The position numbers were made by a program, and so were the translations under genes. A stretch of 59,697 nucleotides of DNA from a virus (taxonomy: Duplodnaviria; Caudoviricetes). The notes below the pieces were generated by a model. It saw only the letters and a list, made by a program, of their open reading frames with translations. It was not told the DNA's origin and searched no databases. The stretch is taken from the IMG/VR virus record IMGVR_UViG_3300034414_000011, positions 1 to 59,697 of that record. One strand, given 5' to 3'. Numbering within the stretch: the stretch's first letter is position 1; each line of letters opens with the position of its first letter. This document shows positions 275 through 59,697 of the stretch, piece by piece.

Positions 275-302
275 TTGACAGACGTTAACTCGCGTGGATA
301 AT
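275..302 (+). promoter_or_regulatory. Sigma70-like promoter for the lipoprotein gene
   Basis: TTGACA (275-280), 16-nt spacer containing GTTAAC, GATAAT (297-302). Confidence 0.6.
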
Positions 303-330
303 GTGGGGCATCAAGACTGCGGAGGTTCCT

Positions 331-822
331 ATGAAAAGGCTCTTTGTTTTAGTGTTTCTTCTCTCCCTGGTAGGTTGCACCGGCGATAAAGACAGGTTTA
401 CGGAGTTTGAGACCGAATACGCACCCACCATGCAGGACTTAACTGCACTGGTGAAGGCAACAGATCGTAACGTCAAGGATTATGAGGCAATCTCCCTGGT
501 CGAAAAGTGCAAGTCGGTCAGCGAGAAAACGTGCAAGAGTGCTCTCGTTTTACAGGAAAAGGCCAATGCCTTGAAGGACGAAGAGGCGAGGAAGGTTGCG
601 ACCACTATTGCGAATGACATTAATGATGCTGGTAAGTTTTCCGAGGAACTAGGGGCAATGTATTCGTACCGGTCACGGCCTGCAAATGAAGCGGTGTTGC
701 CTGGGCATAGCCGTTATGAACATATCTACGATGATATTCTGAAGGCCGGAGCCTTGAGAGACCTTGTGGACAAGATAGAAACCGAGCATGCTACCTTGAA
801 GGGCGTAATGTTCAGGAAGTAA
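331..822 (+). CDS. Lipoprotein, moron-like (possible superinfection exclusion)
   Basis: GGAGG RBS before ATG 331; MKRLFVLVFLLSLVG-C signal peptide with lipobox. Confidence 0.75.
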   Translation: MKRLFVLVFLLSLVGCTGDKDRFTEFETEYAPTMQDLTALVKATDRNVKDYEAISLVEKCKSVSEKTCKSALVLQEKANALKDEEARKVATTIANDINDAGKFSEELGAMYSYRSRPANEAVLPGHSRYEHIYDDILKAGALRDLVDKIETEHATLKGVMFRK

Positions 823-1075
823 AGTCGAACTGTCCATCGGGAAAAGTCCCATGCAACAAACTTGACACCACAATTCAACTAGGTTATAGTCCTCCCCGTC
901 ATGCGTGTTCTCCGCTCCATGGTCCGTAGTCCTCCTTTCCACAGACCCCCTTCGATTGCAGTCGTTGGGGGTCGCTCCTTTTATGCCCCCCCTGTTTCTT
1001 AAAAAGTACCTCCCCTAGAAATTTGCCCCTGCCTATTTTCCGTAGCCAAAAAAAGTATCGTTAGAAATATTTAAG

Positions 1076-1103
1076 TTGATTCTCTCTTTCAACTATGTAG
1101 AAT
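1076..1103 (+). promoter_or_regulatory. Sigma70-like promoter upstream of the DIP1984-like gene
   Basis: TTGATT, 16 nt, TAGAAT with AT-rich upstream region. Confidence 0.5.
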
Positions 1104-1138
1104 GGCGTCAACAACAAGGTTGAAGGTCGGAGGGACCA

Positions 1139-1648
1139 ATGAAGATTATCGAGGGAATGAAGAAGATCAAGGATCTCCAGCGGAAGGCAGAAGACTTGAG
1201 AGGGAAGATCGGCGCTCATAGTGCTGACCTGGACTTCGAGACTCCTCTGTACGAGAACCAGAAACTCCAGGTTGCCGAATGGCTCCAGGCGCACAGTGAC
1301 ATCATGAAAGAGATCCTGCGTCTCCGCATCGCCATCCAGAAGACGAATCTCCTCACCGATGTGACGATCACCATTTGCGACAAGCCGGTGACGAAGAGCA
1401 TTGCCGAGTGGATTCATCGCCGGAGAGACCTGGCGCAGTCTGATTATTCTGCCTGGGCGAAGCTGACTGACCGGGGCTTGAAGGAAGGCACCATCACTCA
1501 GTCAACCGGCCAGCTCAAGGAAGTGAAGATCCGCCGCTATTACGACCCGCTTGCCAGGGACCAGAAGCTCGACGAGTACCGGAGTGAACCTCACCTTATC
1601 GACGCGACTCTGGAGGTTGTTAACGCTGTGACAGACCTTATCGAGTAG
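1139..1648 (+). CDS. DIP1984/DUF6847-like alpha-helical protein
   Basis: GGAGG RBS; MKIIEG..., IQKTN..T, SIAEWI.RR and terminal ID..LEVVNAVTDLIE resemble the DIP1984 family pattern (recognition by eye). Confidence 0.6.
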   Translation: MKIIEGMKKIKDLQRKAEDLRGKIGAHSADLDFETPLYENQKLQVAEWLQAHSDIMKEILRLRIAIQKTNLLTDVTITICDKPVTKSIAEWIHRRRDLAQSDYSAWAKLTDRGLKEGTITQSTGQLKEVKIRRYYDPLARDQKLDEYRSEPHLIDATLEVVNAVTDLIE

Positions 1649-1680
1649 AACTTGCAAGGGACTACTTGTTAAGGCTGGAC

Positions 1681-2021: not shown

Positions 2022-2043
2022 TATCAAGGTGTTAACGTGACAG

Positions 2044-2577
2044 ATGATAGGTGAGAAATTCGGGAAATGGACGGTCGTAGCGAGAGAGCCGAACCGCAAA
2101 TATGGGCAGGGCTCTCACCACAGCGCATGGCGGGTACGGTGCGAATGTGGTGAGGAAGAAATATTGCTCGGTCAGTCGCTACGCTCCGGGAGGTCTTTTG
2201 CCTGCCGGTTGTGCAGGCGGGCAGGGAACGGACAAAAGCCGTTTGGTTCTGACCGCAAGGCGTGGGAAGAACTCGGCAGAGTCAGGGATTCAAAAGGTCT
2301 CGCAAGAGGCGATATAAAGTCGAGATCGGTGAAATGGCTCATGGAGAGCCAAGACCGGAAAGGCTTGCTGGTACAGATAAAGGCCATGGCCGGGGAATAC
2401 CGGGAACACATGAGGGAGAAATGCCCACCCGATGACTACCCGCCCTGCATGGGCTGTTCTGATCTGACAGTGGCTTTTTGTGACGACTCCGGCCTGGAGT
2501 GCCGGGAATTTCATTCGTATTGCTGTAACTACAAAAAGGAGGGACGAGAGGATGTTTGTAACGAAGAAACGGCATGA
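2044..2577 (+). CDS. Hypothetical protein with an N-terminal Cys motif typical of HNH/AP2 homing-endonuclease N-termini
   Basis: GEKFGKWTV...WRVRCECG...LRSG.S..C motif; Cys-rich C-terminus; no HNH core seen. Confidence 0.55.
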   Translation: MIGEKFGKWTVVAREPNRKYGQGSHHSAWRVRCECGEEEILLGQSLRSGRSFACRLCRRAGNGQKPFGSDRKAWEELGRVRDSKGLARGDIKSRSVKWLMESQDRKGLLVQIKAMAGEYREHMREKCPPDDYPPCMGCSDLTVAFCDDSGLECREFHSYCCNYKKEGREDVCNEETA

Positions 2578-3016
2578 CGCCATAGTGAGCAACTTGTGGG
2601 AAGAAATTTTTTGTCTGCAAAAAAGCATCGAAAAGCTCAAGGGCAGTCGGGTTGAAATCGTGACCTGTACTGACTGCGGCTGTATGGTCGAAAAGACGAA
2701 AGCCAGAGAGCTTGAGCCTACTATCATGAAACATGGGCTGAGACCCGCATATCTACCGAGCTTTATAGAGCACAAAGAATACACCGTCATTCCGCACTTT
2801 ATCTGTTGGGGTTGCGACAAGGCCAGGAAAGAAGCGGTAGAGGTGAAAGGGTTGGCGGAAGACCTGCTCGAAGCCGCTGACGCACTGTTCGATTCCCTCG
2901 ACAAAGAAGGTTGCAAAACCCTTTGCGATGATCCGTGTAACCCTGCTTGCGATGCCTGCCAGGCACCAAGGCCGACTGAGGCAGGTGTAACCGGTAAACC
3001 GAATGTCCCAGGTTAA
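2552..3016 (+). CDS. Hypothetical Cys-rich protein
   Basis: Purine-rich RBS before ATG 2552; several CxxC pairs. Confidence 0.55.
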   Translation: MFVTKKRHDAIVSNLWEEIFCLQKSIEKLKGSRVEIVTCTDCGCMVEKTKARELEPTIMKHGLRPAYLPSFIEHKEYTVIPHFICWGCDKARKEAVEVKGLAEDLLEAADALFDSLDKEGCKTLCDDPCNPACDACQAPRPTEAGVTGKPNVPG

Positions 3017-3120
3017 CTCAGAAAACAACAAGAAGAGGGAGACTGAGTGCCCTCGATGCGGGGCACCCTTAACCGGGTGCCTTTGTCGTAACTGCGGGTT
3101 CAGCGGTTGCGGAGGTCTTT

Positions 3121-3405
3121 ATGAGTAAGGCAATGGCCGAACGCAGGATAGGTAGAGTCCTGGTCGAAAACGAATTTCTTATCGAAGTTGCCGGGTTGAG
3201 TTTTGCGCCGGGCGTTGAGCTGGTGAGAATACTCCCCGCTTACGACCGGGTAGAGTTCGGAAGTTGCCACTGGATCTTTCTGGCGCAAGATTCCCTGGAA
3301 CCGGTACCCAAAGGGGCTATCGTGCCCGAATACAAGTTCGAGATTGTTACTCCAGAAGAAGGCTCCGACGAGAAGCCGAAAGCATATCTGGTACCGGTGG
3401 AGTGA
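3121..3405 (+). CDS. Hypothetical protein
   Basis: GGAGG RBS; ORF in operon context. Confidence 0.6.
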   Translation: MSKAMAERRIGRVLVENEFLIEVAGLSFAPGVELVRILPAYDRVEFGSCHWIFLAQDSLEPVPKGAIVPEYKFEIVTPEEGSDEKPKAYLVPVE

Positions 3406-3477
3406 CCGCAAGAGAAGAGTGGATACAGGAAAGAGCCTGCATTATGTGGGAAGGCAATAACAAGGAGATTTCGTTCG

Positions 3478-4799: not shown

Positions 4800-4943
4800 A
4801 TGACGAAACTATTTGACAAGTTCCTGTGCTTTGTTTTCGGCCATACCTGGGTTGCCCGTCTCGACCTTGACCCAAGAGTTAACGTGATGGTGGCATATCA
4901 TAGGTGCTCCAGGTGTGGAGCCTCTACAACGAGGAGTTTATGA
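4800..4943 (+). CDS. Small Zn-ribbon protein (DUF1660-like)
   Basis: GGAGG RBS; MTKLFDKFLCFVFGH.W...C.RCG read from the sequence. Confidence 0.45.
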   Translation: MTKLFDKFLCFVFGHTWVARLDLDPRVNVMVAYHRCSRCGASTTRSL

Positions 4944-5248
4944 ACCACGAAGAAAAGATGGAGGCATTACGCGGCATATTCGATCATTGCCTAGAGGTGG
5001 CCGACGCCAAGGGGCATGATTATTCCGGCACCGAAGACGCGATGAGCAACTTTCATGATTTCGGTTGGCAGGGGATTATCGTCAGGATCGGTGACAAATA
5101 CCACCGGGTCAAGAACTTCTGCAAAAAAGCTGTGCTCAAGGTCAAGGATGAAAGTGTAGAGGACACCCTATACGACCTTATCACCTACGCGGCTCTCGCT
5201 CTTATCATGTATTGGGGGGAAAAGCGCAATGCTTCTGGTAAAGCCTAG
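4940..5248 (+). CDS. DUF1599 / nucleotide-modification-associated domain 1 protein
   Basis: KGHDYSG...NF, RIGDK..R, DESVEDTL.DL..YA motifs. Confidence 0.7.
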   Translation: MNHEEKMEALRGIFDHCLEVADAKGHDYSGTEDAMSNFHDFGWQGIIVRIGDKYHRVKNFCKKAVLKVKDESVEDTLYDLITYAALALIMYWGEKRNASGKA

Positions 5249-5888
5249 TTTCAAGATCATCGACGAGATCGACGGTGTCAAGATCCTGCGTTCCATCGAG
5301 CAGGCCGGGCGAACCTGCTACAAGTCCGAGGACAAGATCAGTGAAGGTAGCGCCGGGAAGTTTGTCGCAATGATAATCAAGCGCGGCCATGAATCGGTGC
5401 TGGAGCATGAGAAGGTTTCGGTGCGGATCGTCTGTGACCGTGGCGTGTCCCATGAGCTTGTGCGACACAGGATAGCGAGTTTTAGCCAGGAGAGCACCCG
5501 GTACTGCAACTACGAGGGTGGAGTGGCTTTCGTGATCCCACCGTGGACAAGCATCTCACCTGGGAATTATGAGAAAGGCAGTCACACCCTTTTGGTGCAA
5601 TTTGCCTGTCCCGCTGATGCGGAGTGGTTCTGGATGATGGAGGAAGTTGAAAACTCATACCAGACACTTCTTGATAACGGATGGACCCCGGAAAAGGCCC
5701 GCTCGGTACTGCCGAACAGCCTCAAGACGGAAATCGTCATGACCGCGAATCTACGCGAGTGGCGACACTTCTTTAAGCTCCGGGCGTCAACTGCGGCACA
5801 CCCACAGATGCAGGAGATCGCCTACCCACTCTTGAAAGAAATGTCCCGGCTGATACCGGTCGTTTTTGATGACATCGTGGTTGTGTGA
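5229..5888 (+). CDS. thyX: FAD-dependent thymidylate synthase
   Basis: GHESVLEH, RHRIASFSQESTR ThyX signature, ARSVLPN, NLREWRHF..LR. Confidence 0.95.
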   Translation: MLLVKPSFKIIDEIDGVKILRSIEQAGRTCYKSEDKISEGSAGKFVAMIIKRGHESVLEHEKVSVRIVCDRGVSHELVRHRIASFSQESTRYCNYEGGVAFVIPPWTSISPGNYEKGSHTLLVQFACPADAEWFWMMEEVENSYQTLLDNGWTPEKARSVLPNSLKTEIVMTANLREWRHFFKLRASTAAHPQMQEIAYPLLKEMSRLIPVVFDDIVVV

Positions 5889-6499
5889 TGACCAAGAAGA
5901 AGACCGAAAAGATTAAGCCTCCCGAAGCGCCATGGGCTCCAGGCCAAAGAGCCGGTGCGGTTACTCAAGCTCCGATTCCGGTCAAGGAAGCGAAGCTCTT
6001 GAAGGCTCTTATCGTTGACGGCAAGAGACCGAAAGAGGCTGTTGTCGAAGCCGGGTACACTGGTGCCAACCTCCAGCGGGGCACCAACGCCAAGGATCTT
6101 TGCGAGTTCGTCAAGAGCAAGCACCCGAATATCAATGTGGCGCTACTGGAGAGCCTTGAGGCGGCAGGAGTGACCCCGGATTATATCGTCAGCAAAGTCA
6201 AGGGTCTCTGCGAAGCGAAGAAGCAACTCCCGGTCAGGAAGATAAAAACCAAGTCCGAGGGTATCGAGGTCGAGGAAATAGAATACGCCGACTTCGATGA
6301 CCATCACGCGCAACACAAGGGCGTTAACACGCTTCTTGACATCCTGCCAGGGGCAAGGGCTCCGAAGAGGGTTGAAGTCACTCAGCAGACGTTTGAGCAG
6401 AAGGTTTCCATCCATGCCGAGATCCAGCAAAACCCGGCAGAAGCAATGAAGCTCATTCAAAGCCTTATCGAGCAGAAGAAGATTACCGAGGTTTCGTAG
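5885..6499 (+). CDS. Probable terminase small subunit
   Basis: HTH-like KEAVVEAGY segment; position upstream of the large terminase. Confidence 0.55.
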   Translation: MMTKKKTEKIKPPEAPWAPGQRAGAVTQAPIPVKEAKLLKALIVDGKRPKEAVVEAGYTGANLQRGTNAKDLCEFVKSKHPNINVALLESLEAAGVTPDYIVSKVKGLCEAKKQLPVRKIKTKSEGIEVEEIEYADFDDHHAQHKGVNTLLDILPGARAPKRVEVTQQTFEQKVSIHAEIQQNPAEAMKLIQSLIEQKKITEVS

Positions 6500-9440: not shown

Positions 9441-9490
9441 GAAGCCCGGATTTCTAGTGTTAACACTCACTAGAGGTCCGGGCTTTTTGT
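9441..9490 (+). terminator. Long hairpin plus U-tract in the leader of the portal operon
   Basis: AAGCCCGGATTTCTAGTG...CACTAGAGGTCCGGGCTT-TTTGT with GTTAAC at the apex. Confidence 0.65.
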
Positions 9491-9506: not shown

Positions 9507-11588
9507 ATGATGCAGGCAATACCAACTCCAACGCCAGGTGTAAGTAATTTCGGACTTGTCAAGGTCAGGAATAATGACGCATTGGCGGCAGAAGGGCTTT
9601 CCAGGGTACAGCCTGCCTCGCCTCCGCCTATCATCTCTTCACTCTCCGGGTATGTGAGCCGGTGCTGGCAAAACGCCAAGACCGCCAAACAGCCGATTGA
9701 GCAACAGATGATGCAGAGTTTGCGTCAACGGTACGGGATTTATGAAGCTGACAAATTGGCGGCGATCAGGGAGATGGGTGGGTCAGAAATCTTTGCCCTC
9801 CTGACACTGACGAAGTGCCGGGCCGCAGAGTCGTGGATTCACGACACGCTCAGTCCGGCGCAGGAGAGACCGTGGGCAATCGTCCCGACCCCTGTTTCCG
9901 AACTGCCTCCCGATGTGGAGCAGGACATCCGGCAGAAGACCGAGGCAACCTTCCGGGATGTGGTGGATCAGATTAACGCCATGCAAGGGTTTATTGATGT
10001 TAACGCGCTTCGTGGCGAGATCGAAACCTACCTCAAGGGCATGACCGATGAGACCATGCGCGAGCTACAGGAAGAAGCCGAGCTTCGCATGGAACGCATG
10101 TCCAACAAGATTGACGACCAGCTTACCGAGGGCGGTTGGCATGATGCCTTTCAAGAGTTCGTCTTCGATGTAGTGACTCTCAAGGCCGGGATACTGAAAG
10201 GCCCGGTAGTCAGGCGCAAGAAGGTCCAGAAGTGGGTACAGGGGTCGAAGTTCTGGAGCATGGGCACCGCTGATGAGTTTGTGCTGGAGTTCGACCGGGT
10301 TTCCCCCTTCGATATTTACCCGCAACCAGGCTCCCGGAGTGTCGATGACGGATATATCATCGAGCGCCACATGCTCAACAGGTCGGATCTTGTCGCTATG
10401 TTGGGTGTGCCAGGCTACTCCGAAGAGGCGATACGGACGGTCCTCGATGACTACGAGAACGGCAAGATCACCGAGTTTCTGCCGATAGACTCCGAACGCT
10501 ACTACATGGAGCATGGCGAAACCACCACGATCTACCAGACCGGCAAGATCGAGGCTCTTGAGTTTTGGGGAAGCGTCCAGGGCAGGCTCCTGATTGAGTG
10601 GGGCTTGACCGATGGTATTGACCCTCAACTTGAGTACGAAGTTAACGTGTGGCAAGTGGGCTCCCATGTTATCCGGGCGATCATCAACCCTGACAAGCTC
10701 GGTCGCAAGCCCTACAGCGTGACCTCATTCGAGAAGATACCCGGCTGTTTTTGGGGTATGGGCATACCGGAATTAATGTCCGACTCCCAGGACGCATGCA
10801 ACGCCGTAGCCCGCGCAATCGTGAACAATGCCGGTATCGCTTCCGGTCCCTTGGTCGAAATGAACATGGACCGTTGCGACGACAATACAAAGCTCTGGCC
10901 TTGGCGCGTATTTCAATCGACCAATCAGCAAATGCAGGAGGCTCCGGCTGTCAGGTTCTACCAGCCGACCATCGTTACCGGCCCGCTGATGGAGGTCTTT
11001 GAATACTTCGCCCGTATGGCAGACGAGCAAACAGGGGTTCCCCGCTGGAGCCATGGCAACACGAATATCGGCGGAGCCGGGGACACATCGTCCGGCCTTT
11101 CCATGCTGATGACGTATGCCGCTCGCGGGATCAAAAAGGTCATTTCCCATCTTGACGTTGCGGTGTCTGGCGTAATCACCAGAACCTACGACTACAACAT
11201 GATTTATGACCGCGATCAAAGCATCAAGGGTGACGCCAAGGTTGTTGCTCGCGGGGCAAGCGCCCTGGTGGCAAGGGAACAGAAGATGCTCCGTGTCAAC
11301 GAGTTCCTCCGGACTACCAACAACCCGGTTGATTATCAGATCATGGGACCGGACTTCCGGGCGAAGCTACTCAGGACTGCGGCCAAGAATCTTGAGATTG
11401 ACGACTATGAGGATATTGGTGGCAACGAGCTTATCAAGATCCTGGAGCAAGTCAGGGCACAGACGGCACAACTCGGATGGCAAGGTGTTACCCCGCAAGA
11501 GAAGGGGCAAAAGACTGATTCTGCCGGTAATCCTGCCGGTGGCACAGACCATAACGCCTTCCAGAACCAGCCAGGGGTAAGAACGTGA
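9507..11588 (+). CDS. Portal protein (podovirus type)
   Basis: 693 aa following terL; PFDIYP, GCFWGMGIPELM.D.Q..CN, ADEQTG, GDTSSGLSML portal motifs. Confidence 0.88.
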   Translation: MMQAIPTPTPGVSNFGLVKVRNNDALAAEGLSRVQPASPPPIISSLSGYVSRCWQNAKTAKQPIEQQMMQSLRQRYGIYEADKLAAIREMGGSEIFALLTLTKCRAAESWIHDTLSPAQERPWAIVPTPVSELPPDVEQDIRQKTEATFRDVVDQINAMQGFIDVNALRGEIETYLKGMTDETMRELQEEAELRMERMSNKIDDQLTEGGWHDAFQEFVFDVVTLKAGILKGPVVRRKKVQKWVQGSKFWSMGTADEFVLEFDRVSPFDIYPQPGSRSVDDGYIIERHMLNRSDLVAMLGVPGYSEEAIRTVLDDYENGKITEFLPIDSERYYMEHGETTTIYQTGKIEALEFWGSVQGRLLIEWGLTDGIDPQLEYEVNVWQVGSHVIRAIINPDKLGRKPYSVTSFEKIPGCFWGMGIPELMSDSQDACNAVARAIVNNAGIASGPLVEMNMDRCDDNTKLWPWRVFQSTNQQMQEAPAVRFYQPTIVTGPLMEVFEYFARMADEQTGVPRWSHGNTNIGGAGDTSSGLSMLMTYAARGIKKVISHLDVAVSGVITRTYDYNMIYDRDQSIKGDAKVVARGASALVAREQKMLRVNEFLRTTNNPVDYQIMGPDFRAKLLRTAAKNLEIDDYEDIGGNELIKILEQVRAQTAQLGWQGVTPQEKGQKTDSAGNPAGGTDHNAFQNQPGVRT

Positions 11589-12949: not shown

Positions 12950-13888
12950 ATGGTAGGAAGAGTTCCTGGGTACCCTGATCTCGGTTCGCAAGGTCAGAGT
13001 CAGTACACCCCCCAAATTTATGCGAAGAAGCTCCTGATTAAGTTCTATTCGGCAACCGTCTTTGGCGAGATTGCCAACAGGGACTATGAGGGCGAGATCA
13101 GCAAGGTCGGTGATAAGGTTATCATCCGCACCCGTCCGACCGTGGTTGTCGATGATTATGTCAAGGGCATGGACCTTGACACGATCCGTCAGACTCCCGA
13201 ATCCGATACCGTTGAACTGCTTATCGACAAGGCCAAGGTCTACTCGGTACAGATTGACGACATCGACCGGCTCCAGAACGACATCCAGGCGCTTGAAGAG
13301 TGGTCTGCCGATGGCGGCGAACAGCTCGCCCTCTCCATCGACCGGTCCATCCTGGGATCGTTCTACGCCGACGCGGATACGCTGAATACCGGTTTGACCG
13401 CTGGTAAGGTTTCCGGTTCCTACAACATGGGCGTTACTGGCACTCCGGTTGCCCTGACCAAGAGCAACATCCTTGACTACATCGTTTACTGCGATGCGGT
13501 CCTGTCCGAGCAGGACGTTCCGAAAACCGGTCGCTGGATGGTGCTTCCTGAGTGGGCGCTGGCTCAGATCAACACCTCTGACCTCCGCTCGGCACTCTTT
13601 ACCGGAGACCAGAGCAACCAGAACCTCCGTAATGGCAAGATCGGGCAAATCTCGAACTTCACCATCTACGGTTCCAACAACCTGACCGGTGTGACTGACG
13701 GTGCTGATACCTGCTGGAATATCCCGTTCGGCCATAAGTGCGCCCTGACTTTCGCCAGTCAGCTCGTCAAAAACCGGACCCTGGAACTCCAGAAGACATT
13801 TGCGACCGTCCAGGAAGGTCTCCAGGTCTACGGTTGGGAAGTTGTCAAGCCCGAAGCTCTTGGTGTTCTTTACGCCAAGAAGGGCTAA
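12950..13888 (+). CDS. Major capsid protein
   Basis: PQIYAKKL, NRDYEGEI..GDKVII, LLIDKAK, GLQVYG..VVKPEAL motifs. Confidence 0.88.
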   Translation: MVGRVPGYPDLGSQGQSQYTPQIYAKKLLIKFYSATVFGEIANRDYEGEISKVGDKVIIRTRPTVVVDDYVKGMDLDTIRQTPESDTVELLIDKAKVYSVQIDDIDRLQNDIQALEEWSADGGEQLALSIDRSILGSFYADADTLNTGLTAGKVSGSYNMGVTGTPVALTKSNILDYIVYCDAVLSEQDVPKTGRWMVLPEWALAQINTSDLRSALFTGDQSNQNLRNGKIGQISNFTIYGSNNLTGVTDGADTCWNIPFGHKCALTFASQLVKNRTLELQKTFATVQEGLQVYGWEVVKPEALGVLYAKKG

Positions 13889-21290: not shown

Positions 21291-21293
21291 TTG

Positions 21294-22523
21294 ATGCTTT
21301 CATCCCTAAATTACGAAAGCGGTGAAGTCCTTTCAGTGCGCCTCAGAAACGTCTCCCGGCAGTTTTGGGACTTCACAGCGTTAACGTGGGTTGCTTCCGA
21401 AAGTGTTGATACCCGCATTAGTTATGGCGAGTCGGCAAACGGTGATGGGACGAGTCTTTATACCGCGGATGTTCCTGTACCGACTGGGGGACCGTTTGTA
21501 CAAGAGGTGCTTAACGCTTCCAATGATTTCATCACCTCAGACACTACAGCCATTGACGCCACAATATCGGAATCAGTTGCAAATGCCCCTCCTACGGTCG
21601 ATGAAATCAGGCAGGAGATGGACGCAAATAGCACCAAACTTGCCAATCTTGATGTTGCCGTATCCTCTCGCTCGACCTTCAATGGTGGTCAGGTGGCGTC
21701 AGTTGCCGGTTCTGTCGGAAGCGTAACCGGGTCGGTAGGAAGCGTGGCGGCACCTGTAACTGTCGGAACCAATCAGGATAAGACCGGCTACAGTCTGTCA
21801 ACTGCGGGGATCTTGGCAATATGGAACCAGGCAACCGGTGCGGCTGGTATCCTTGTCAATACCATCGGGGCAAAGTTCCGCGATCTGGTGCTTGGAACTG
21901 ACAATCGGGTGAAGATTTCCGCCGATGCTCAAGACCTGGCCGGGTTGAAGGTGACGGCAAAGACCGTTGAAGACAAGGCGGGCTATGCTTTAACTTCGGC
22001 CTATGACGCGGCCAAAACTGCGGCGTCTCAAACGTCAGTCGATTCGATACCGACGAATCCGCTCCTTGCCACTGACTCCAGGCTGGACCATCTGGACTCC
22101 GACATTTCCGCGATACCGACCGACCCTCTCCGGTTCGGGGATTATACGGCACCGGACAATGCGGGGATTGCGGCTATATTTTCGGCTACTCAAAGCGCGG
22201 CCCTTGAGCTTGACGCTATCTCCGGCGCTCTTGCCGCTGTTGCCTCCAGTGCTGATGTCCAGACCCTCCTTGATCGACTGAGCAACGCCCGCGCAGGACT
22301 GCTCGACAATCTCCAGTATCTCACCGAAGCACCAGGCTTGACGGTGGCGCAAGTTGCCATGCTCACCGAGGCAAGGGACGAGGCAAAGTTATCTCGGCAA
22401 CTCCAGAGCAATAAAGCTGTTATCGCCAATGACGGTCTGTCTGTGACGGTTTATGCCGATGACGGGATAACGCCGTTGTGGGTTTTCTCGATCCCTGACA
22501 ACAAGCACAGGATACCGGCATGA
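21294..22523 (+). CDS. Tail fibre/needle-like virion protein
   Basis: VAGSVGSVTGSVGSV repeats, DKTGYSL/DKAGYAL repeats, VYADDG.TPL C-terminus. Confidence 0.6.
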   Translation: MLSSLNYESGEVLSVRLRNVSRQFWDFTALTWVASESVDTRISYGESANGDGTSLYTADVPVPTGGPFVQEVLNASNDFITSDTTAIDATISESVANAPPTVDEIRQEMDANSTKLANLDVAVSSRSTFNGGQVASVAGSVGSVTGSVGSVAAPVTVGTNQDKTGYSLSTAGILAIWNQATGAAGILVNTIGAKFRDLVLGTDNRVKISADAQDLAGLKVTAKTVEDKAGYALTSAYDAAKTAASQTSVDSIPTNPLLATDSRLDHLDSDISAIPTDPLRFGDYTAPDNAGIAAIFSATQSAALELDAISGALAAVASSADVQTLLDRLSNARAGLLDNLQYLTEAPGLTVAQVAMLTEARDEAKLSRQLQSNKAVIANDGLSVTVYADDGITPLWVFSIPDNKHRIPA

Positions 22524-24181
22524 TCTACACCCACGAACAGGTAACAGGTGGTGAAGAGTACCTGGGCTTTGCCCGGCAGAAGCTCGCGTGGTTGGAGAGG
22601 GCTCGCCTTGAGGCTGGAGCGCCTATAATGACCTGGGGGCCGATAGAGATCAATGGTGTTGAAATCTATATTGAATCTTCAAACAGCAAAAATCTGATAA
22701 GAATTGAAAGCATCCCTGGCGGGTTTATTTGCCACCCAAGAGACCTGACCAACAAGGGCGGGGCGAAACCTGGTGGAGTGGCAATAACTCCAGAGTACAC
22801 CTATCCTTTGGTAGATGACGACCAAGGAAGCCGGATTCTAACCTATGAAGGCGATGCGTGGGCGGTTTCTTCCGACGTTGAGAACTATGGAAACCTTTAC
22901 TGGATAAGCGGCGGCGGTGATGTCCTTTCGTGGCGCGGGCCTGCTGGTCGGCAATTCGCCATGGACTCCACCAAGTCATACCCTGGCTTCACCGAATGGG
23001 ATTACACGGAGATGGTTGCGGGGTTGGAGGTCGAGCATTATACCCCTTACCGCAACCAGGTCTACCAGAACGGAGAAGTGCTCAAGGAATTTCTTTACGG
23101 GTACAAGGTCTTGGGATGCGCTCTGAACAGTGGGAGCCTTGTATGCGTGATTGGTGTCGATTACGCGGGGATTGCTAATCCTGATGGTGGCACTGGCGGT
23201 TTTTATGACGAGGTTTGGATTGGCGACGCAAGGATAGGCTGGCAAAGTTCTTCTCGCCCGAAGACACCATGGTTCTTTAACTCCATTGGCACCGAGGCTG
23301 TCTGCGGAAACAGGAAGATTGTGGTAGCCGAAGATTTGCTCAGTGTCGTTTTCTCTGACCTTGAAGTTGGAAGTGGCTCTCAAAATAATGAATATACCGG
23401 TGCAGATAGAAGCACATGGGGGGTCACAAAGTCTGGAAGTTGGCCGATGTTTCGTGACTATGTAGGGTTGATGGATCAAGGGGTTGCACTGATTATCAGC
23501 CTTGATGAACGCTCCACATCAACAGCCAATGGATCAGAAGACCGGGCTGATCTTCCCGTTATGATGTCAGGAATAGACGACCCGGTCGTTACGGTCAGTG
23601 GCCCAGAGGGTTACGCTGGAGAGGGCGCATACAGTTACGCCGTGAGCGGTAATAATTGTGGCATAGATACGGTTGAGTGGTCATACCCGAACGGGTGCGG
23701 TGAAGGCACCGTTAGTGTTACGGTCACGTTCCTTGGTGGTAAAACGGTAACAGGTAGCATGCAAGTAAAGATGCCGAGTGGCTCATATATGCTGATAGAG
23801 TCATGGTATAGTGGCCGACCCAACAGTTATTTGTTTACATGCGGAAACACAAATGGTTTTGAATATACAACCGGAGGATACGGCTTTAGTTTCAATGCCG
23901 GATCAGAAACAGGACCACAATGGAATATAATTTCACAAACTTGTATAACGGGAACAATACCGAAAGATTTAGGGTATCCAAGTGATAAAAAGCCAATTCC
24001 TTGTAGTGGGTACGAACAACCTGACCAAGTAAGTAGTGACGGGCATTGCTATTCAGTGACATTACATCAATACGTTTGGATGAATTACTATACTAAGTAT
24101 AAATGGTTCTGCAACGACGCAATCTTAATTGACACTACTACGATAGATGGTGTGACTTATTACACTTATGCCAATCCTTGA
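22520..24181 (+). CDS. Virion/tail protein with AT-rich Cys-rich C-terminus
   Basis: ATGA coupling; 553 aa. Confidence 0.55.
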   Translation: MIYTHEQVTGGEEYLGFARQKLAWLERARLEAGAPIMTWGPIEINGVEIYIESSNSKNLIRIESIPGGFICHPRDLTNKGGAKPGGVAITPEYTYPLVDDDQGSRILTYEGDAWAVSSDVENYGNLYWISGGGDVLSWRGPAGRQFAMDSTKSYPGFTEWDYTEMVAGLEVEHYTPYRNQVYQNGEVLKEFLYGYKVLGCALNSGSLVCVIGVDYAGIANPDGGTGGFYDEVWIGDARIGWQSSSRPKTPWFFNSIGTEAVCGNRKIVVAEDLLSVVFSDLEVGSGSQNNEYTGADRSTWGVTKSGSWPMFRDYVGLMDQGVALIISLDERSTSTANGSEDRADLPVMMSGIDDPVVTVSGPEGYAGEGAYSYAVSGNNCGIDTVEWSYPNGCGEGTVSVTVTFLGGKTVTGSMQVKMPSGSYMLIESWYSGRPNSYLFTCGNTNGFEYTTGGYGFSFNAGSETGPQWNIISQTCITGTIPKDLGYPSDKKPIPCSGYEQPDQVSSDGHCYSVTLHQYVWMNYYTKYKWFCNDAILIDTTTIDGVTYYTYANP

Positions 24182-24201
24182 TAGCCTTATAGGGGTAAGT
24201 T

Positions 24202-24516
24202 ATGTTAACAAGCAATGGACAAAGACTAGAAGTATGGCTTGGTTTGAAAAATAAATTTGATTACCAAGCGTTCAGTAAAGCCTGCTTGAGTAAAAATATT
24301 GAACCACTACCAGCAATGGAGTTCGCCCAAAAGGCCGGGCTTATTATGTGCGGAATGACAGCATACCCCGACTTGCCAGAAGCGGAGGCTTACCTTAAAT
24401 ACATTCGAGAAAACCCGCTTCCGCTTCCCACTACTTCCGCACCGATAGCTTCACAGGTCGTACCACGGACCCCATCGACTAACTGCCAAAGTTGCGGCGG
24501 CGGTAAGGTAAGATGA
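24202..24516 (+). CDS. Hypothetical protein with C-terminal CxxCGG
   Basis: ORF in operon. Confidence 0.55.
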   Translation: MLTSNGQRLEVWLGLKNKFDYQAFSKACLSKNIEPLPAMEFAQKAGLIMCGMTAYPDLPEAEAYLKYIRENPLPLPTTSAPIASQVVPRTPSTNCQSCGGGKVR

Positions 24517-40922: not shown

Positions 40923-42170
40923 TTATTGCCCGCCGATAGTGAAGTCTGCCATGGCCGCATGGGTAGATCTCTCGGTAATATGGGCATATCGGCGAGTCAT
41001 GTATGACGAAGAGTGTCCAACTATTTTTCGGAGCACTTCGATCTTATCCGGGAACGCTTCGAGGAAGAGGGTACAGAACGTGTGCCGGAAGTCATGGAAG
41101 GTGAAGTCTTCGATGCCGACCGCCGCGAGTGCTCTCTGGAGCCCGAAGTTTGACGTGATCTTGATATGATCTCCAGGCTTCTTGGGACTCGGTATAACGT
41201 ATCCCTTTGCGCGAACAACATTGGATCTCGCCTTCCACTTCTTTAACTCGTCTCGGAGTGTCGGCGTCATGGGAATGCGCACCGGCTTTGCCGCACCGTC
41301 CCGGTGATGCTTCACCATTTTGACGATCTCGTTCCGGTCCCAATCAATCTCTTCCCACCGCAAGGTAAGCACTCCGTCGATACGAAGACCAGTGTTCAAT
41401 CCCAAGATAGCTGCGATCCTGAGATGGGCAGGGTAGACAGCTATTTCTTTTTCGGATGTTAACACGCTCATCCGCCTCCTGGAGCACTCCGCGAGCAGTT
41501 TGTCTATCTCGGTATGGGTCAGGTACCTCTCGCGCTCGTTATCCTCCCTGAGAAGCTCATAGTCCACCAGGAGCGAGTGCTTGATGATGCGTTTCTGTAC
41601 CGCAATGGACATCATGCGTTTCAGTGTGGCAATCTCTCGGTTGATCGTGGCGTTTGTTGGGTAGCCCCCTTTGCCCCTTCCTTCCTCGATAATCTGTGTT
41701 CTGCGGTACTGCTTGTACTCGTCAACGTCTTCCCACTCGATGTTGCGAATGTCTTTCCCCGTAAAGAATGGGGTCAGGTGAACCCTTGTGCGATAGCGAT
41801 ACGAGCTTGCTGATCCTGGGGCGAGTTTCCCTTCCGCCTCCCGCTCGTCCACCCAATCAAGAAATATTTTTGCGGCATGCAAGTATGTTGTGTCCTTGGG
41901 CTTAGAAAAAACCTCTCCCTTGCTTTTTCGATCTATCAAGGAAGCCTCGTATGCCTTCGCCTCTTCCTTGGTCCCTACTGATTTTTTGTGCGGTTTCATC
42001 ACCCCGTCCTTGCCGGGTAACTTCACACAGACACACCACTTTGCAAGGTACCTTGTTTCCGCACCGCAAGAGCAGAGGGGCGGAGTTTCCTTCCCCCCTT
42101 TCTTCGCTACTGTTTGATCGTGATACTCTTTACCGCATGCACCGCACAACCTTCGCTTGTAAACTGACAT
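40923..42170 (-). CDS. int: Tyrosine integrase
   Basis: TGLR, HDFRHT, VGHS...MTRRY catalytic R-H-R-H-Y residues. Confidence 0.93.
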   Translation of the reverse strand: MSVYKRRLCGACGKEYHDQTVAKKGGKETPPLCSCGAETRYLAKWCVCVKLPGKDGVMKPHKKSVGTKEEAKAYEASLIDRKSKGEVFSKPKDTTYLHAAKIFLDWVDEREAEGKLAPGSASSYRYRTRVHLTPFFTGKDIRNIEWEDVDEYKQYRRTQIIEEGRGKGGYPTNATINREIATLKRMMSIAVQKRIIKHSLLVDYELLREDNERERYLTHTEIDKLLAECSRRRMSVLTSEKEIAVYPAHLRIAAILGLNTGLRIDGVLTLRWEEIDWDRNEIVKMVKHHRDGAAKPVRIPMTPTLRDELKKWKARSNVVRAKGYVIPSPKKPGDHIKITSNFGLQRALAAVGIEDFTFHDFRHTFCTLFLEAFPDKIEVLRKIVGHSSSYMTRRYAHITERSTHAAMADFTIGGQ

Positions 42171-51377: not shown

Positions 51378-51635
51378 ATGGGAAAAGCAGAGTTGGTAAA
51401 GGCAGTCATGGCGGTTGGAATAACGGAGAAGCTCGCAAGGGCGGCTGTTGAGGCAGTCTTTGAAGAGATTTCCGAAGAGGTCAAGCGGGGCGGGGCGGTG
51501 GAGGTCAGGGGTTTTGGCACCTTCTATCTGAAAGAAACTGCGGCGAAGGTGGGGCGCAATCCGGCGACACAGGAGCCTATCAACATCAAGGCGTCGAAGA
51601 GGTTGGCTTTCCGCACCAGGCTCAAGATCGAGTAA
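51378..51635 (+). CDS. HU/IHF-like DNA-binding protein
   Basis: K.ELV, V...GFGTF, GRNPATQE.I.I.A...AF. Confidence 0.93.
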   Translation: MGKAELVKAVMAVGITEKLARAAVEAVFEEISEEVKRGGAVEVRGFGTFYLKETAAKVGRNPATQEPINIKASKRLAFRTRLKIE

Positions 51636-53139: not shown

Positions 53140-53140
53140 G

Positions 53141-56197: not shown

Positions 56198-56533
56198 TCA
56201 ATACTCAAAAAGTCCTGCCGCTGTGACGATGTAGTTACCAAGTACCTCGATGTCGTGCCCCTCGAAAATGTCCCTCTTCTGCATTGCCGCTATTTCATCT
56301 TCTGCCGATGGTTTTGACGTTCCAGAAGGGTGGTTATGCGCGAAGATAACCGCGTCCGCCTTTGCTTCTACCGCGTCCGCGATAAGGTCCGTCAGGTTTT
56401 GGGATACCGTGTTGCCGTGTCCCTGCTTCTCGATGGTCTTGATTAACTTGCCTTTCCGGTAAAGGAAGGTGGAAGCTACCTCGTTAGGGTAGCCTCCCAT
56501 CTGTGCCAGTAGTGCGTTAACTTCATTAGTCAT
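56198..56533 (-). CDS. RadC-like JAB domain protein
   Basis: E...AHNHPSG...PS.ED JAB motif. Confidence 0.8.
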   Translation of the reverse strand: MTNEVNALLAQMGGYPNEVASTFLYRKGKLIKTIEKQGHGNTVSQNLTDLIADAVEAKADAVIFAHNHPSGTSKPSAEDEIAAMQKRDIFEGHDIEVLGNYIVTAAGLFEY

Positions 56534-57356
56534 TGTCTTTGCCTCCTAGTAGTTCTTTTGCCATTCTGTTTACCCACTGTGCGGACCCTTCGATTGTGTT
56601 GAAGGTCGTCATGTTTCCGTCATCAATTCCTCTCGGAATGTAGATGATTGTTGTGCCGTCCTCGTCCGTGGAAATAGCTTCTGTTTGGTGTTCCATTCCA
56701 TCGACAGAACTTCCATAATTCCCGCTGTATCGGAATTTCGCCTGTTTCTCTGTTATTGCAAACATGAGACGCCGGTTGTATGAGGGGTGCGCCATGCAAA
56801 AAGCCAGTGCATCAAGGTCTATCGGGCCAAGTCCCATGCGGACAACGTAAGTGCCTGTACTGTTAACTCGGTAAATGTCCAGTTCAACAATGTTGTTCGG
56901 GTCGCTCTGGAGAAGATTCACCAGTGCCACGACTGCCGCTCCCCTGTTCATCAGTTGCTCGACTGTCGTATCTCCGTTTGAGGAAGGGTTAACGTGAATC
57001 CTAAACATTTTCTTGCGCGGCTCCATGTCCTGCTCTAGCCAGCACTCCGGCTCGCCCGTCATGACTGTTCCAATGTCGAAAGAAAGCCCTGTAACGTCCC
57101 AATAGTAATTCGCCGGTTCATACTTCACATGGTTTTCGATGCGTTCCAGCTTGTCGCTCATGTCCTTTACGCCTTCGTGCCAGCCTGTTCTTGCCAGCTT
57201 TGCCGCCTCAGCCCAATCTGCCGTCAGGGTGAAGTGGCGGCCATTGGTTCTTGAGTCGTTATAGCCCCCGTTGTTCTCCCATTCGTCCGTGTCCGTGTAG
57301 GCCAATAACTCGTCCATGTTCCTAAATTCGATGTAGGGTTCAACTCGTTTCAGCAT
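56526..57356 (-). CDS. vWA-like partner of the MoxR AAA ATPase
   Basis: Follows the AAA gene; G...DIG..M.GEPECW, RGAAV..LV..L, AHPS..RR..F. Confidence 0.6.
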   Translation of the reverse strand: MLKRVEPYIEFRNMDELLAYTDTDEWENNGGYNDSRTNGRHFTLTADWAEAAKLARTGWHEGVKDMSDKLERIENHVKYEPANYYWDVTGLSFDIGTVMTGEPECWLEQDMEPRKKMFRIHVNPSSNGDTTVEQLMNRGAAVVALVNLLQSDPNNIVELDIYRVNSTGTYVVRMGLGPIDLDALAFCMAHPSYNRRLMFAITEKQAKFRYSGNYGSSVDGMEHQTEAISTDEDGTTIIYIPRGIDDGNMTTFNTIEGSAQWVNRMAKELLGGKDND

Positions 57357-57438
57357 GGTCATTCCCTCCCTTTCTTGTGAAGTTAACAGCTTCAAGGAAA
57401 GCCTTGAATGTCTTGATTCAAGGCCAACCTTCAGACGG

Positions 57439-58746
57439 TTAACAATGTGCCGTGATCTTTGATCTGATGTCTTGAGAAACGCCTTTCCAGATAACCATTT
57501 CCTCTACTTCGTGCCGTGGAAAGCCTGCCGCTAGTAGCTTTGCCCCTTTGATTGATGCCCTTGGGGAGATAATGATTTCCTGTTTTGTATCCCATGCCGC
57601 TTTCCTGTACCTCTGTACCGTCTTTGCCCATTCGGTATTACCAGCAAGAAATACCTCCAGTTCTTCGTCGTAATCAAAGTCGATAACAGCGAAGCGGTCC
57701 AGCGTGGCTCCGTCCAGCTTGTTTCGTCCTACATACTGCCGATCTGCCCCGCGTCCATAGGTGTTCATTGCCATGACACATACAAAGTCGGCGTTAACTT
57801 CAACCATGCCATCAGGGAAGGGCGCGAAGCCGTTGGAAGTCATAGCGTTCATGATGGTTATGGTGTTCGCGTTCCCTGCGTCCGCTTCGTCCATGAGGAA
57901 AACGCCGCCGTGTTCGATAGCGTCCCGCAACTGTGTCCTGTGGTAATTCCCCGTTGCGTCGATAAAGCCGATAAGATCAGTTTTTGTCGTCTGCTGACCC
58001 ACCGATATACAGTAGAAGTTTAAGCCGTTCGCCTCTGCCGCCGCGTGTACTGCATGCGTCTTGCCGCTCCCTGCCGGTCCAACAAGGGAGAAGTTTTCCC
58101 TTGCCATTACCAGCTTCACCAGCTTTTCAAACAGGTAGTGTTGCCGCCCCATGTCCTTGACTTCGCCGGTAGGTAGTTCAACCTTGATAACCTTCGCCGC
58201 CTTCTGTATCTCTTCCTTGATGATGTCCTCAATCAAATCGGGGTCCGGTAAAAGGTTAAGGTATGGAGAAATCATCATCGCCATCATCTGACCGAAAGCA
58301 TCTGCTCCAGCACTTCCCGGCGTAGGCATTGCCACTGGACCCGCGTTAACTTCTGCCCATGTACCGTTCATGAGGTATTCCGCTATCTGGTCCCGGCTCC
58401 ACTTCGTTCTCAAGTCCGTTGTGGGCCTGCCTTCTGCCTTGGCTTTCTCGGCTCCCCGCTTCCTCAACTCCTGCATGGACAGTTCTTTGATTTCTTCTGC
58501 GCTCATTTCTTCCCCCTCGCTGTTATCGTTCGGTTCCGTGTTAACTTCTGGAATTACCGTAAACTCTCTGATTGCCCTGTCTTTCAACTCCGCGTCATTG
58601 CCGTAAAACTTCGTGCCGTCGCTGTTGCCAAACTTCGATGGTTTCAGTCCGACAGAACGGAGCCAGAACTTTTCGTGTTCTGTTTCAGCATCGAATACCC
58701 AATAGACCTTGCCGGTCTTTCGCTTCCTGTGCTCTGTGATCTTCAT
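57439..58746 (-). CDS. MoxR/CbbQ/CobS-like AAA+ ATPase
   Basis: GPAGSGKT, FLMDEAD, MNTYG.G...YVGRN.LD.ATLDRF, SPRA. Confidence 0.88.
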   Translation of the reverse strand: MKITEHRKRKTGKVYWVFDAETEHEKFWLRSVGLKPSKFGNSDGTKFYGNDAELKDRAIREFTVIPEVNTEPNDNSEGEEMSAEEIKELSMQELRKRGAEKAKAEGRPTTDLRTKWSRDQIAEYLMNGTWAEVNAGPVAMPTPGSAGADAFGQMMAMMISPYLNLLPDPDLIEDIIKEEIQKAAKVIKVELPTGEVKDMGRQHYLFEKLVKLVMARENFSLVGPAGSGKTHAVHAAAEANGLNFYCISVGQQTTKTDLIGFIDATGNYHRTQLRDAIEHGGVFLMDEADAGNANTITIMNAMTSNGFAPFPDGMVEVNADFVCVMAMNTYGRGADRQYVGRNKLDGATLDRFAVIDFDYDEELEVFLAGNTEWAKTVQRYRKAAWDTKQEIIISPRASIKGAKLLAAGFPRHEVEEMVIWKGVSQDIRSKITAHC

Positions 58747-59128
58747 AGTTGCGCCCTCCTTTCATTCTAGTTTGTTGAAGTTAACAGCCTCAAGAATCCC
58801 CATGAATAGGTCCATGGGGAGAGTTCAAGCGGTTAACCAGTTTACCTTGGCGCTTCACTCATCAAGTTGCTTCGCGCCTTTCGACAGGAGGGAGACATCT
58901 TCCCCGTTGTTCCCGAATCGTGCTCTGGCCTGCGTTAACTCTGCTTTTCTTGTCGTTTTCCTTCTGTTCCCGCTAGTAGCGCCAGTTTACTCCGTCGAGT
59001 CCAATCCTTTTGCATCCCGTCTCGGTCTGGAGATCTTCCTACTTGCCCCTCTCCAGTTATGTTTCATCTCGGCCTTTCGCCTTTCCTTCCCCTCCGTTTG
59101 CCTTCTATTCAGTTGTTCCCGCAATTCT

Positions 59129-59172
59129 ACTTTATCGAATGTCTGACACCGTGTCAACAACTTTGTCTGACA
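59129..59172 (-). promoter_or_regulatory. Leftward early promoter flanked by two TGTCnGACA operator-like palindromes
   Basis: Minus-strand TTGACA (59152-59157), 17 nt, TAAAGT; TGTCTGACA at 59140-59148 and 59164-59172. Confidence 0.6.
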
Positions 59173-59697
59173 TTATTTTCAATCAAGTGGAATTACCGCG
59201 TAAATACTGGCTTTCTCCCTACCTATCTAGGAAAACCTTAAAACAGGTATACATAGGAGAACCTTACCCTATATATAGGTATACTTGTCTTTCAACCTCT
59301 ATATGGGAGTTACCTGCTAGGGAAAACAATATGGGAATACTGTATGGGGAAAGAGGAGGATGACCGGCGCGTTTCCCACAAAATCTGCCGAATCAATCCG
59401 TCTACGCGGATATATCATCTGGACCATTCATCCGTTTAAGCGGATATAACGACAAAGCCGCGTAATCATTGGAGTTATCACAAGTTAACTCGATGGTCTA
59501 GGCCATGGTTCGAGGGTGCCAGGGTACCATATTGGATACCATTTCCCGGCTCGCTCTATGCAAAGCCTTGATGTATCTACGTTTCCAACCGAAGGGCAAT
59601 GGTTGGTCAAACCTTTACCCATCTATCCCCCTCCCTCGGCCCTCCCTTTGCCGCGTTACTTCCTTCGGTGCCAGCCAGGTGCCCCGGACCACCCCCA

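Follow-up and report, generated by a model that had tools for sequence, protein, structure and literature searches.

The genome of a temperate tailed phage, held in IMG/VR as record IMGVR_UViG_3300034414_000011 and analysed here over its full 59,697 bases (the window), carries the palindrome GTTAAC at 100 sites between positions 284 and 59489, which corresponds to 1.68 sites per kb or about one per 600 bases. GTTAAC is the commonest hexamer in the window, ahead of TCAAGG with 71 copies, and is the sole exception in a genome that strongly avoids palindromes, being driven the opposite way. Conservation in relatives, a cost paid in amino acids, placement where a site is cheap and even spacing together support the view that the sites are under selection, as a preliminary description made from the sequence alone had proposed. 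[quoted passage not shown] We regard this interpretation as about evenly poised between right and wrong.

Abundance and spacing of GTTAAC

Base composition predicts 13.5 GTTAAC sites in the window, so the observed number is 7.4 times expectation, and dinucleotide-preserving shuffles (n=100) gave a mean of 9.81 (standard deviation 3.22) and a maximum of 18, with none of the 100 reaching the observed count. The preliminary description had arrived at about 100 copies against a mononucleotide estimate of about 13, and both figures hold. Its GC content of about 53% is replaced by a measured 51.6%, and of the 18 site coordinates that it listed 17 are exact and one, 59485, should read 59484. The first 25 nt of the window reappear at 59571 (25 nt compared), which we take to be a terminal assembly overlap of about 127 nt (1-127 and 59571-59697) that leaves a unique genome of about 59,570 bp; as the overlap contains no GTTAAC, no site is counted twice. 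Gene coordinates are those of a simple open reading frame (ORF) caller and not a curated annotation (62 genes, 52,290 nt). Within these genes there are 78 sites, compared with 21.1 +/- 3.9 (maximum 33) in 1000 synonymous-codon shuffles and 11.5 +/- 3.3 (maximum 24) in 1000 codon permutations, and the excess thus persists under a codon-preserving null. The synonymous-codon null is a generous one because the GTT, AAC and TTA codons supplied by the sites stay in it. When all 4096 hexamers were ranked by 200 synonymous shuffles, GTTAAC reached a z of 16.0 and the next word, CTCCAG, a z of 8.0; the latter is not palindromic and is the second most over-represented hexamer of the coding strand (44 copies against 15.3). 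Among the first 58 gene calls the sites are written as GTT-AAC in 39 cases and as xxG-TTA-ACx in 33, in agreement with the two kinds of codon pair, GTT-AAC and GAG-TTA-ACN, that had first been described. The third frame yields TAA and is consequently seen only as a genuine stop codon; such sites contribute to 5 of the 28 TAA stops. Those at 3012, 14410 and 38830 do form stops as had been claimed, whereas the TAA at 32061 is out of frame within the giant ORF and ends no gene.

Palindrome avoidance is held as a rule in phage genomics, and here one palindrome is pushed equally hard the other way. The other 63 hexamer palindromes total 223 copies against 917 expected from composition, a depletion of about four-fold that bears out the earlier remark that the enrichment runs against phage palindrome avoidance, and within genes the codon null predicts 720 copies where 187 are present. 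Taking all 64 together, 29 are absent from the window, 21 occur at 1-3 copies and 14 are more frequent, and the tolerated ones match what the codon null predicts (z at most 2.5). Certain non-palindromic words are also nearly missing from the genes relative to the codon null, among them GAGGAG (1 against 35.9), GGCAGC (0 against 18.5), GCAGCA (0 against 16.9) and GAGGCC (1 against 25.2). The depleted words look like avoidance of many restriction sites and perhaps also of internal Shine-Dalgarno-like words.

When compared with random placement the sites are more even than chance. Gaps in the window have a mean of 598 bp and a median of 550, the largest being 2824 bp and the next 1.66 kb, and their coefficient of variation (CV) is 0.74, where sites placed at random give 0.98 (P about 0.0006-0.001). 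Equivalent values were obtained for four other phages (here and below, G and L numbers denote viral contigs or loci found with portal, TerL, CobS, methyltransferase-helicase and integrase scans), with a CV of 0.68 in G005, 0.79 in G244, 0.78 in G245 and 0.76 in G248 against about 0.98 at random; P over the five genomes runs from <0.0002 to 0.045. The same regularity is present inside single giant ORFs, where the CV is 0.48 for the 20 internal sites of the window's giant ORF (P 0.0006), 0.53 and 0.45 for two non-homologous ORFs of G005, 0.35 for G244 and 0.57 for G245. These five single-ORF tests gave P of 0.0006 to 0.038, and a sixth ORF with only 4 sites gave a CV of 0.44 (P 0.24). Given that gaps are regular within single ORFs, gene boundaries are not the cause of the even spacing. 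Most gaps fall at about 350-950 bp, and inside giant ORFs they peak at about 550-750 bp. Of 59 one-kb bins, 4 contain no site where 11.0 such bins would be expected, and nearly every position in the window lies no more than about 1 kb from a site. Spacing of this kind suggests that the process served acts no further than about 1 kb from a site. The two ORFs under the largest site-free stretch (Table 1) have no homologue in most relatives, and we infer that this stretch was recently acquired.

Selection on the sites and their distribution

Of 19 window sites in blastn alignments with L001, L033, L043 and L217 (71-75% nucleotide identity; L219 gave no alignment), 14 read GTTAAC in the relative too, although the same site may enter this tally through several relatives. 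For the other hexamers of these alignments the conserved share is 20.1% (binomial P 7e-7). GTTAAC sites are therefore kept about 3.7 times better than other hexamers. A cost is also visible in the encoded proteins, where Val-Asn tops the 400 dipeptides in over-representation (79 against 48, z 4.8) and where 36 of the 103 TTA codons fall within G-TTA-AC. Site density is 3.39 per kb in non-coding and 1.48 per kb in coding DNA, 18 sites are no more than 20 nt away from the start or stop of a gene (7.1 expected), and the locations used include spacers between ribosome-binding site (RBS) and ATG, codons 2-3, stop codons and a terminator loop. The RBS-ATG spacers had been noted beforehand and were found again, as were the sites in a promoter spacer at 284 and at a terminator apex at 9459, which lie within the elements listed in Table 1. 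The major capsid protein genes of L001, L003, G005 and G001:C46 are without a site, as is that of the window. In 4 genomes the sites share a flank preference, R-H-GTTAAC-D-Y, with a purine at -2 and G avoided at -1 on both sides, and none is seen at control words. The symmetry of these flanks suggests a dimeric reader.

A signal carried by RNA or peptide, namely GUUAAC in mRNA or Val-Asn and Leu-Thr in proteins, would account for the location of 78 of the 100 sites in genes and for the over-representation of Val-Asn. However, the two frames are used about equally (39 and 33) and specify unrelated dipeptides, non-coding density is 2.3 times higher with a promoter spacer included, the flank preference is symmetric, and 42 of the 79 Val-Asn dipeptides are encoded as GTTAAC when codon usage predicts about 15. 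We consider such a signal scarcely credible.

A nucleotide search of GenBank phages with the window gave no match, and a protein search with the portal found only distant relatives, Rhizobium phages of at most 33.5% identity, of which RHph_TM3_14A has no GTTAAC excess. Rich relatives, recognised by portal and terminase, are present among the viral contigs. G005 has 81 sites (reversed-word control 7) over 54.9 kb, G244 has 81 (control 9) over 59.0 kb and L043 has 33 over 22 kb. L003, L001, L033, L037 and L038 are likewise in excess, and G245 is intermediate with 46 sites (control 37). The rich relatives share few genes with the window beyond terminase, portal, scaffold and capsid, which means that the GTTAAC excess is present in non-homologous DNA. 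Phages with similar terminases (52-65% identity) may nevertheless be neutral or avoid the word, with 14 sites in G246, 1 in G247, 0 in both L035 and L045 and 1 in L044, and G251 has 1 site against 10.0 expected. In the TerL tree, the best maximum-likelihood topology needs 3 changes of the trait and well-supported branches force only 1. By this comparison of sequences GTTAAC richness appears to be a patchy lineage trait, with which a single origin is compatible.

G248 (L209-L210; L075) extends the trait beyond this lineage. It is 31.9 kb long with 43% GC and carries 45 GTTAAC sites (control 5), and it shares only the CobS-like protein, the DUF7192 protein, RecT and YqaJ with the window. As the motif is shared together with almost no genes, its determinant would be portable between unrelated phages. 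G248 is enriched in five palindromes (CGATCG 48, CTCGAG 27, GTTAAC 45, ATCGAT 43 and TTTAAA 66), with 27 others absent, and contains only 6 full HIP1 octamers. Some of its GTTAAC sites form pairs exactly 21 bp apart (among them 24009/24030, 26572/26593 and 26963/26984), and 7 sites that include a 21-bp pair are clustered in 0.8 kb of L110 (4517-5292), giving an iteron-like look.

Other phages turned up with a hyper-abundant hexamer of their own, so the phenomenon may be widespread. In the unrelated G249 (L214-L216; also L118; 51.8 kb, 62% GC) TGGCCA occurs 217 times against 17.1 expected and 41 of the 64 hexamer palindromes are absent. Further examples, measured against composition, are TTGCAA at 35 against 2.9 (L130), TTTAAA at about 12 times expectation (L123, L124 and L126), TCCGGA at 37 against 4.6 and 34 against 6.0 (L163 and L202) and CTCGAG at 45 against 8.2 (L179). 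Among loci of at least 10 kb, and by a composition null alone, so that codon usage may explain the milder cases, a palindrome with at least 12 copies and at least five times its expectation was found in 12 of 69 from the CobS scan, 12 of 56 from the methyltransferase-helicase scan, 3 of 16 from the TerL scan and 2 of 26 from the integrase scan. A broader proposal is that many environmental phages each maintain a private palindrome densely and purge the others, the GTTAAC lattice marking self for a distance-limited process with a portable determinant. This process would be repair or recombination among kin phages, directed by methylation or binding, or the protection of phage DNA, with the at least 8-fold poorer host DNA left unserved. 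We advance this tentatively and think it somewhat unlikely; if true, it would represent the phage counterpart of HIP1, GATC and uptake sequences.

With the portal profile, relatives were found in 5 of 239 genomes of one bacterial order, and the metagenome-assembled genome (MAG) that anchors this host search is named Geobacteraceae. Two of the portal matches lie inside contigs of 194 and 85 kb, and two are phage-sized, GTTAAC-poor contigs (12 sites against 11.1 expected, and 1 against 9.7). The rich phage contig of the MAG has 23 sites in 16.7 kb, compared with 811 over the 5.9 Mb of the MAG as a whole. Each of the 239 genomes in the order carries between 59 and 811 sites, at most about 0.21 per kb, and 235 of them fall below the reversed-word control on our reading of the table. 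If the host belongs to this order, its GTTAAC density is exceeded by that of the phage at least 8-fold and up to about 34-fold, a difference by which the mark could distinguish phage from host DNA. A compositional bias of the host adopted by the phage had been considered from the outset as a possible source of the excess. The window comes from a sediment metagenome, passages of PMC5861425 describe HIP1-type palindromes throughout the genomes of some bacteria, and the richness of the unrelated G248 could mean a shared host. Yet none of the 239 genomes of the candidate order, the host itself being inferred, is enriched, the phage contig stands out within its own MAG, phages with related terminases span 0-1 to 81-100 sites, and even spacing would be left unexplained. 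Adoption of a host bias is on these grounds very improbable. A metagenome scan with the integrase profile gave no prophage-host junction of a rich phage, the only rich loci being L217 and L218, which belong to the G244 contig.

Possible functions of the sites

Our preferred model is a mark on double-stranded phage DNA, kept at about one site per 0.6 kb with few gaps greater than about 1.5 kb. The symmetric 10-bp context R-H-GTTAAC-D-Y would be consistent with a symmetric (dimeric) protein that reads the duplex. The process served might be a methylation- or binding-based mark of strand or self for repair or recombination, like the one suggested for HIP1 and the established one of GATC with Dam and MutH; methyl-directed strand choice offers the nearest logic to have been worked out. 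Alternatively, a protein at work on phage DNA might use the sites for loading or bridging, and a bridging or looping protein, or loading sites for a protective or recombination machine, match the spacing equally well. Whichever applies, the pattern implies an unrecognised sequence-specific system on phage DNA, be it an epigenetic mark, a binding lattice or a repair or recombination signal. Natural on/off contrasts, such as the window and G251 or the rich G244 with its lack of a methyltransferase, make the system testable, and a 60-kb genome in which all 100 sites are recodable may help explain what HIP1-type palindromes do.

Several observations weigh against a phage-private mark of this kind. 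The TGGCCA sites of G249 are randomly spaced (CV 0.98), so even spacing is not general to such palindromes and is specific to the GTTAAC phages examined. The term phage-private relies on a single MAG bin and on the portal relatives of 5 genomes out of 239 in one order, and the host is a candidate one. Among the families compared, no phage gene was found that tracks the GTTAAC trait, and searches of the 4 rich genomes with the Pfam families N6_N4_Mtase (PF01555), C5 DNA_methylase (PF00145) and D12/Dam (PF02086) and with Vsr gave no match. To these may be added the possible repeat counting in the conservation tally and the turnover of sites at larger divergence, where 1 of 9 is common to the window and G005 (seven genes, about 57% amino-acid identity). 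Sites thus persist over moderate divergence and are replaced in the longer term at a maintained density, which suggests that selection favours having a site nearby over keeping it in one exact place. The single shared site is in the portal gene (alignment column 1287) and is common to all four relatives compared; its calculated window coordinate, 10793..10798 (+), is probably wrong, as no GTTAAC is present there and the nearest is at 10641.

The closest known system is HIP1 together with the alternate HIPs of cyanobacterial chromosomes, and the earlier suggestion of HIP1 as a loose precedent is a fair one. Like GTTAAC, HIP1 is a short hyper-abundant palindrome that occurs in several frames, with sites conserved above background, a non-random distribution, a density near one per kb and, as the HIP1 texts consulted present it, a function long unsettled. 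Passages of PMC5861425 describe it as under selection and quasi-periodic, and it is reported in part of PMC13756078 to promote transformation in a way that depends on methylation. It differs, in these accounts, as a GC-rich 8-mer that is cell-wide, has the cognate orphan methyltransferases DmtA and DmtC and shows periodicity at 10-90 kb, whereas GTTAAC is a 6-mer with an AT core, is abundant in phages and not in their candidate hosts, has no cognate methyltransferase found and is regular at 0.5-0.7 kb. Over-representation, conservation and quasi-periodicity, as in HIP-type elements, are all observed here; a cognate methyltransferase in the same genome and presence in a cellular chromosome are not. 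We file this phage-private iterated hexamer with sub-kilobase regularity as a new variant of HIP-type element. The word 'phage' is absent from the searched text of PMC4390886 and of the other HIP1 paper searched. Our literature search of article texts gave no account of a phage genome in which GTTAAC, or any other hexamer palindrome, is enriched. GTTAAC itself appears only as an enzyme specificity in PMC8919816 and PMC11033074, and the nearest statement found, in part of PMC7230728, concerns haloarchaea with the cognate methylase, in which GATC is over-represented.

Comparison with other short words is also informative. The GATC system of enterobacteria (Dam, MutH and SeqA) uses a 4-mer found in host and phage alike with a known methyltransferase and nickase, unlike GTTAAC for which neither has been identified, and the candidate hosts are not known to use methyl-directed repair. 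Chi, the uptake sequences USS/DUS and KOPS resemble GTTAAC as short, over-represented words that mark self for a DNA-processing machine and reshape codon choice. They lack symmetry, are often oriented by strand and abound in the host chromosome, whereas GTTAAC is palindromic and rare in the candidate hosts. Restriction-site avoidance operates in the same window, which purges other palindromes, and poor relatives avoid GTTAAC itself (0-1 sites), in contrast to its 7.4-fold excess here. In the part of PMC6286503 seen, a survey of avoidance, over-representation is a passing remark that concerns Type III and IIM sites. GATC is a palindromic methylation site that is useful only if one lies within about 1 kb of every position, which predicts dense coverage with few gaps, as observed for GTTAAC, and section 3.4 of PMC4390886 (Elhai) predicts about one site per kb from the roughly 1000-nt reach of methyl-directed repair.

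The preliminary description had proposed that the sites are targets of the N6-adenine methyltransferase and Strawberry-notch-like (Sbno) helicase in a 3812-aa putative virion protein, the product of the giant ORF at the end of the structural module, and would serve self-marking, anti-restriction or stepwise genome entry. DarB of phage P1 and the 'polyvalent protein' concept concern virion proteins with methyltransferase and helicase modules, and the 3812-aa ORF appears similar in position and in both modules; the likeness concerns the giant protein and not the sites, and presence of the protein does not follow the GTTAAC excess. The methyltransferase looks intact and gamma-class, with motif I EPTAGxG and motif IV NPPF conserved in three genomes and a Pfam N6_Mtase match just above cut-off, it is accompanied by a superfamily 2 helicase, and the pair is present in 3 of 4 rich genomes (the window, G005 and G245). 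However, G244 is rich and has a giant protein of 2289 aa with an InPase domain only, the methyltransferase-helicase profile finding 0 candidates in its 59-kb contig, which CheckV scores as 73% complete although it runs collinear with the window between about 2 kb and the CobS gene. Conversely, G251 has a giant protein with 35% identity over 56% and the nearest methyltransferase domain but only the one site. By identity to the window's domain, a ranking without a tree, G251 (47.9%) is followed by L153 (42.7%), G005 (39.8%) and G245 (39.5%), so the domains of rich phages do not form their own specificity group in this ranking, and the L153 locus is also poor (3 sites against 5.2 expected). When presence of the methyltransferase-helicase was compared with the trait, 2 of 56 viral loci matching the profile proved rich, G005 and G245, both known from the terminase clade, and palindromes at five times expectation or more are no commoner in these loci (12 of 56) than in CobS-scan loci (12 of 69). 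Targeting by this enzyme therefore did not withstand either comparison and we judge it quite improbable. The other suggestions of the preliminary description, self marks methylated by the host or a protein-binding lattice, may still apply. The giant ORF of G247 (L071:7496-17668) has ART-PolyVal and LPD38 domains and no InPase, methyltransferase or helicase, and from such domain arrangements the cargo of giant proteins appears to be swapped between close phages. Other candidate readers fared no better. Scans of viral contigs with single CobS-like and methyltransferase-helicase sequences gave no match, and profiles were used afterwards. A HincII family search gave no match in the rich genomes and none in control genomes either, so that it carries no weight, and for a nickase reading hemimethylated sites no Vsr was found in the rich genomes, with the MutH family not searched. 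Families common to all four rich genomes are the CobS-like protein, the DUF7192 protein (weak in G245), a DnaD-like initiator, the InPase domain and a small protein. The first three were rejected as determinants because they are also in the poor G251, and 75 of 80 CobS-scan loci are not rich although the CobS-like protein is in every rich genome. The small protein, whose AlphaFold model has a mean predicted local distance difference test score of 47.9, belongs to the widespread Phage_P22_Y8K6 family of unknown function and is absent from the rich G248. The HU-like protein is in the rich window, G005 and G244 and in the poor G246, G247 and G079:C63, and is absent from G245, G248 and G251. None of these families follows the trait, so the reader may be encoded by the host, or be a small and fast-evolving phage protein that escaped recognition, or a known protein whose specificity is unreadable from sequence.

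Two further explanations were weighed. A neutral drive, in which biased repair or gene conversion copies the methylated, site-bearing strand, requires no function of the sites, and such a model was published by Elhai for HIP1 (available text of PMC4390886). It fits the encoded RecT and YqaJ exonuclease, which are makers of heteroduplex, the turnover of site positions at larger divergence, and the depletion of most one-mismatch neighbours of GTTAAC in the window, where the ratio to expectation is 0.43 for ATTAAC/GTTAAT, 0.31 for GCTAAC/GTTAGC and 0.66 for GTGAAC/GTTCAC, with a similar pattern in G005. That depletion is, though, also expected from selection. Drive also predicts random or clustered spacing, and the spacing is even in five genomes and in single ORFs; the sites are about 3.7 times better conserved than other hexamers, the same argument that passages of PMC5861425 use for selection on HIP1; the methyltransferase family searches and Vsr are without a match, with no mismatch nickase found in the phages; and the candidate host genomes, which would share any host-encoded drive, are not enriched. 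We therefore regard drive as unlikely. An architectural lattice, in which a dimer or tetramer bridges neighbouring sites and so condenses or silences the prophage or organises the replicating genome, overlaps our preferred mark, from which only the process served sets it apart. The optimum for DNA cyclisation is near 500 bp, and the gap mode in giant ORFs is close to the 0.5-0.7 kb favourable for looping. The symmetric 10-bp context and the 21-bp paired sites in G248 and L110 are also consistent with a lattice, as are an integrase in the window, G244 and G245, which points to temperate phages (none was found in G005), and an HU-family protein in three rich genomes; prophage-encoded silencers such as CgpS of Corynebacterium exist. 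Against this, no candidate binder tracks the trait, the HU-like protein being present in poor phages too and absent from G245 and G248, and we place the lattice at the same low level of probability as drive.

Gene content of the window

The window is a complete virus record with terminal repeats flagged, and its sequence is present in contigs of two sediment-metagenome runs (short-read), from which it may derive. The tyrosine integrase indicates that the phage is temperate. Feature positions are collected in Table 1.

Table 1. Features of the window and selected GTTAAC sites
Feature	Position	Strand	Remark
GTTAAC in spacer of sigma-70-like promoter	284..289	+	TTGACA-16-GATAAT, 275-302; 11/12 consensus positions
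GTTAAC supplying TAA stop	3012..3017	+	stop of ORF 2480-3016
GTTAAC at apex of terminator-like hairpin	9459..9464	+	hairpin 9441-9486, 19 pairs, then T run; 3' of tRNA-Tyr
Major capsid protein gene	12950..13888	+	no site; flanking sites 12814 and 13900
GTTAAC sites supplying TAA stops	14410, 38830, 50748	+	
GTTAAC site supplying TAA stop	57438	-	
Largest site-free stretch	21386..24203	+	2.8 kb, over ORFs 21291-22523 and 22520-24181
Giant ORF, 3812 aa	27396..38834	+	InPase, N6 methyltransferase (about 31266-31700), Strawberry-notch-like helicase
Tyrosine integrase	40923..42170	-	
HU/IHF-family DNA-binding protein	51378..51635	+	85 aa
DUF7192 protein	56526..57395	-	
CobS-like AAA+ ATPase	57439..58746	-	
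GH108 endolysin, GTA-type holin, YqaJ exonuclease, RecT, SSB			
ThyX and DUF1599 protein			
Primase-helicase			
RusA-like resolvase and RadC-like protein			
tRNA-Thr and tRNA-Tyr			

The CobS-like ATPase and the DUF7192 protein form, together with the RadC-like JAB protein, a conserved minus-strand block beside the genome end (56198-58746), and relatives of the CobS-like protein are encoded on more than 500 viral stretches. Genes for nucleotide metabolism or modification are dispersed among the rich genomes (window 4904-6499; G244, G005 and G245) and include ThyX and DUF1599 (Nmad1), with Nmad5, DUF4406 and a MazG-like protein in one or more of them. None is common to all rich genomes, and they hint at non-canonical nucleotide chemistry. 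In L043, L044 and L053 the TerL matches are split (to about residue 186 and from about 332) and the genes are about 1 kb overlong, which suggests an insertion such as an intein, intron or homing element.

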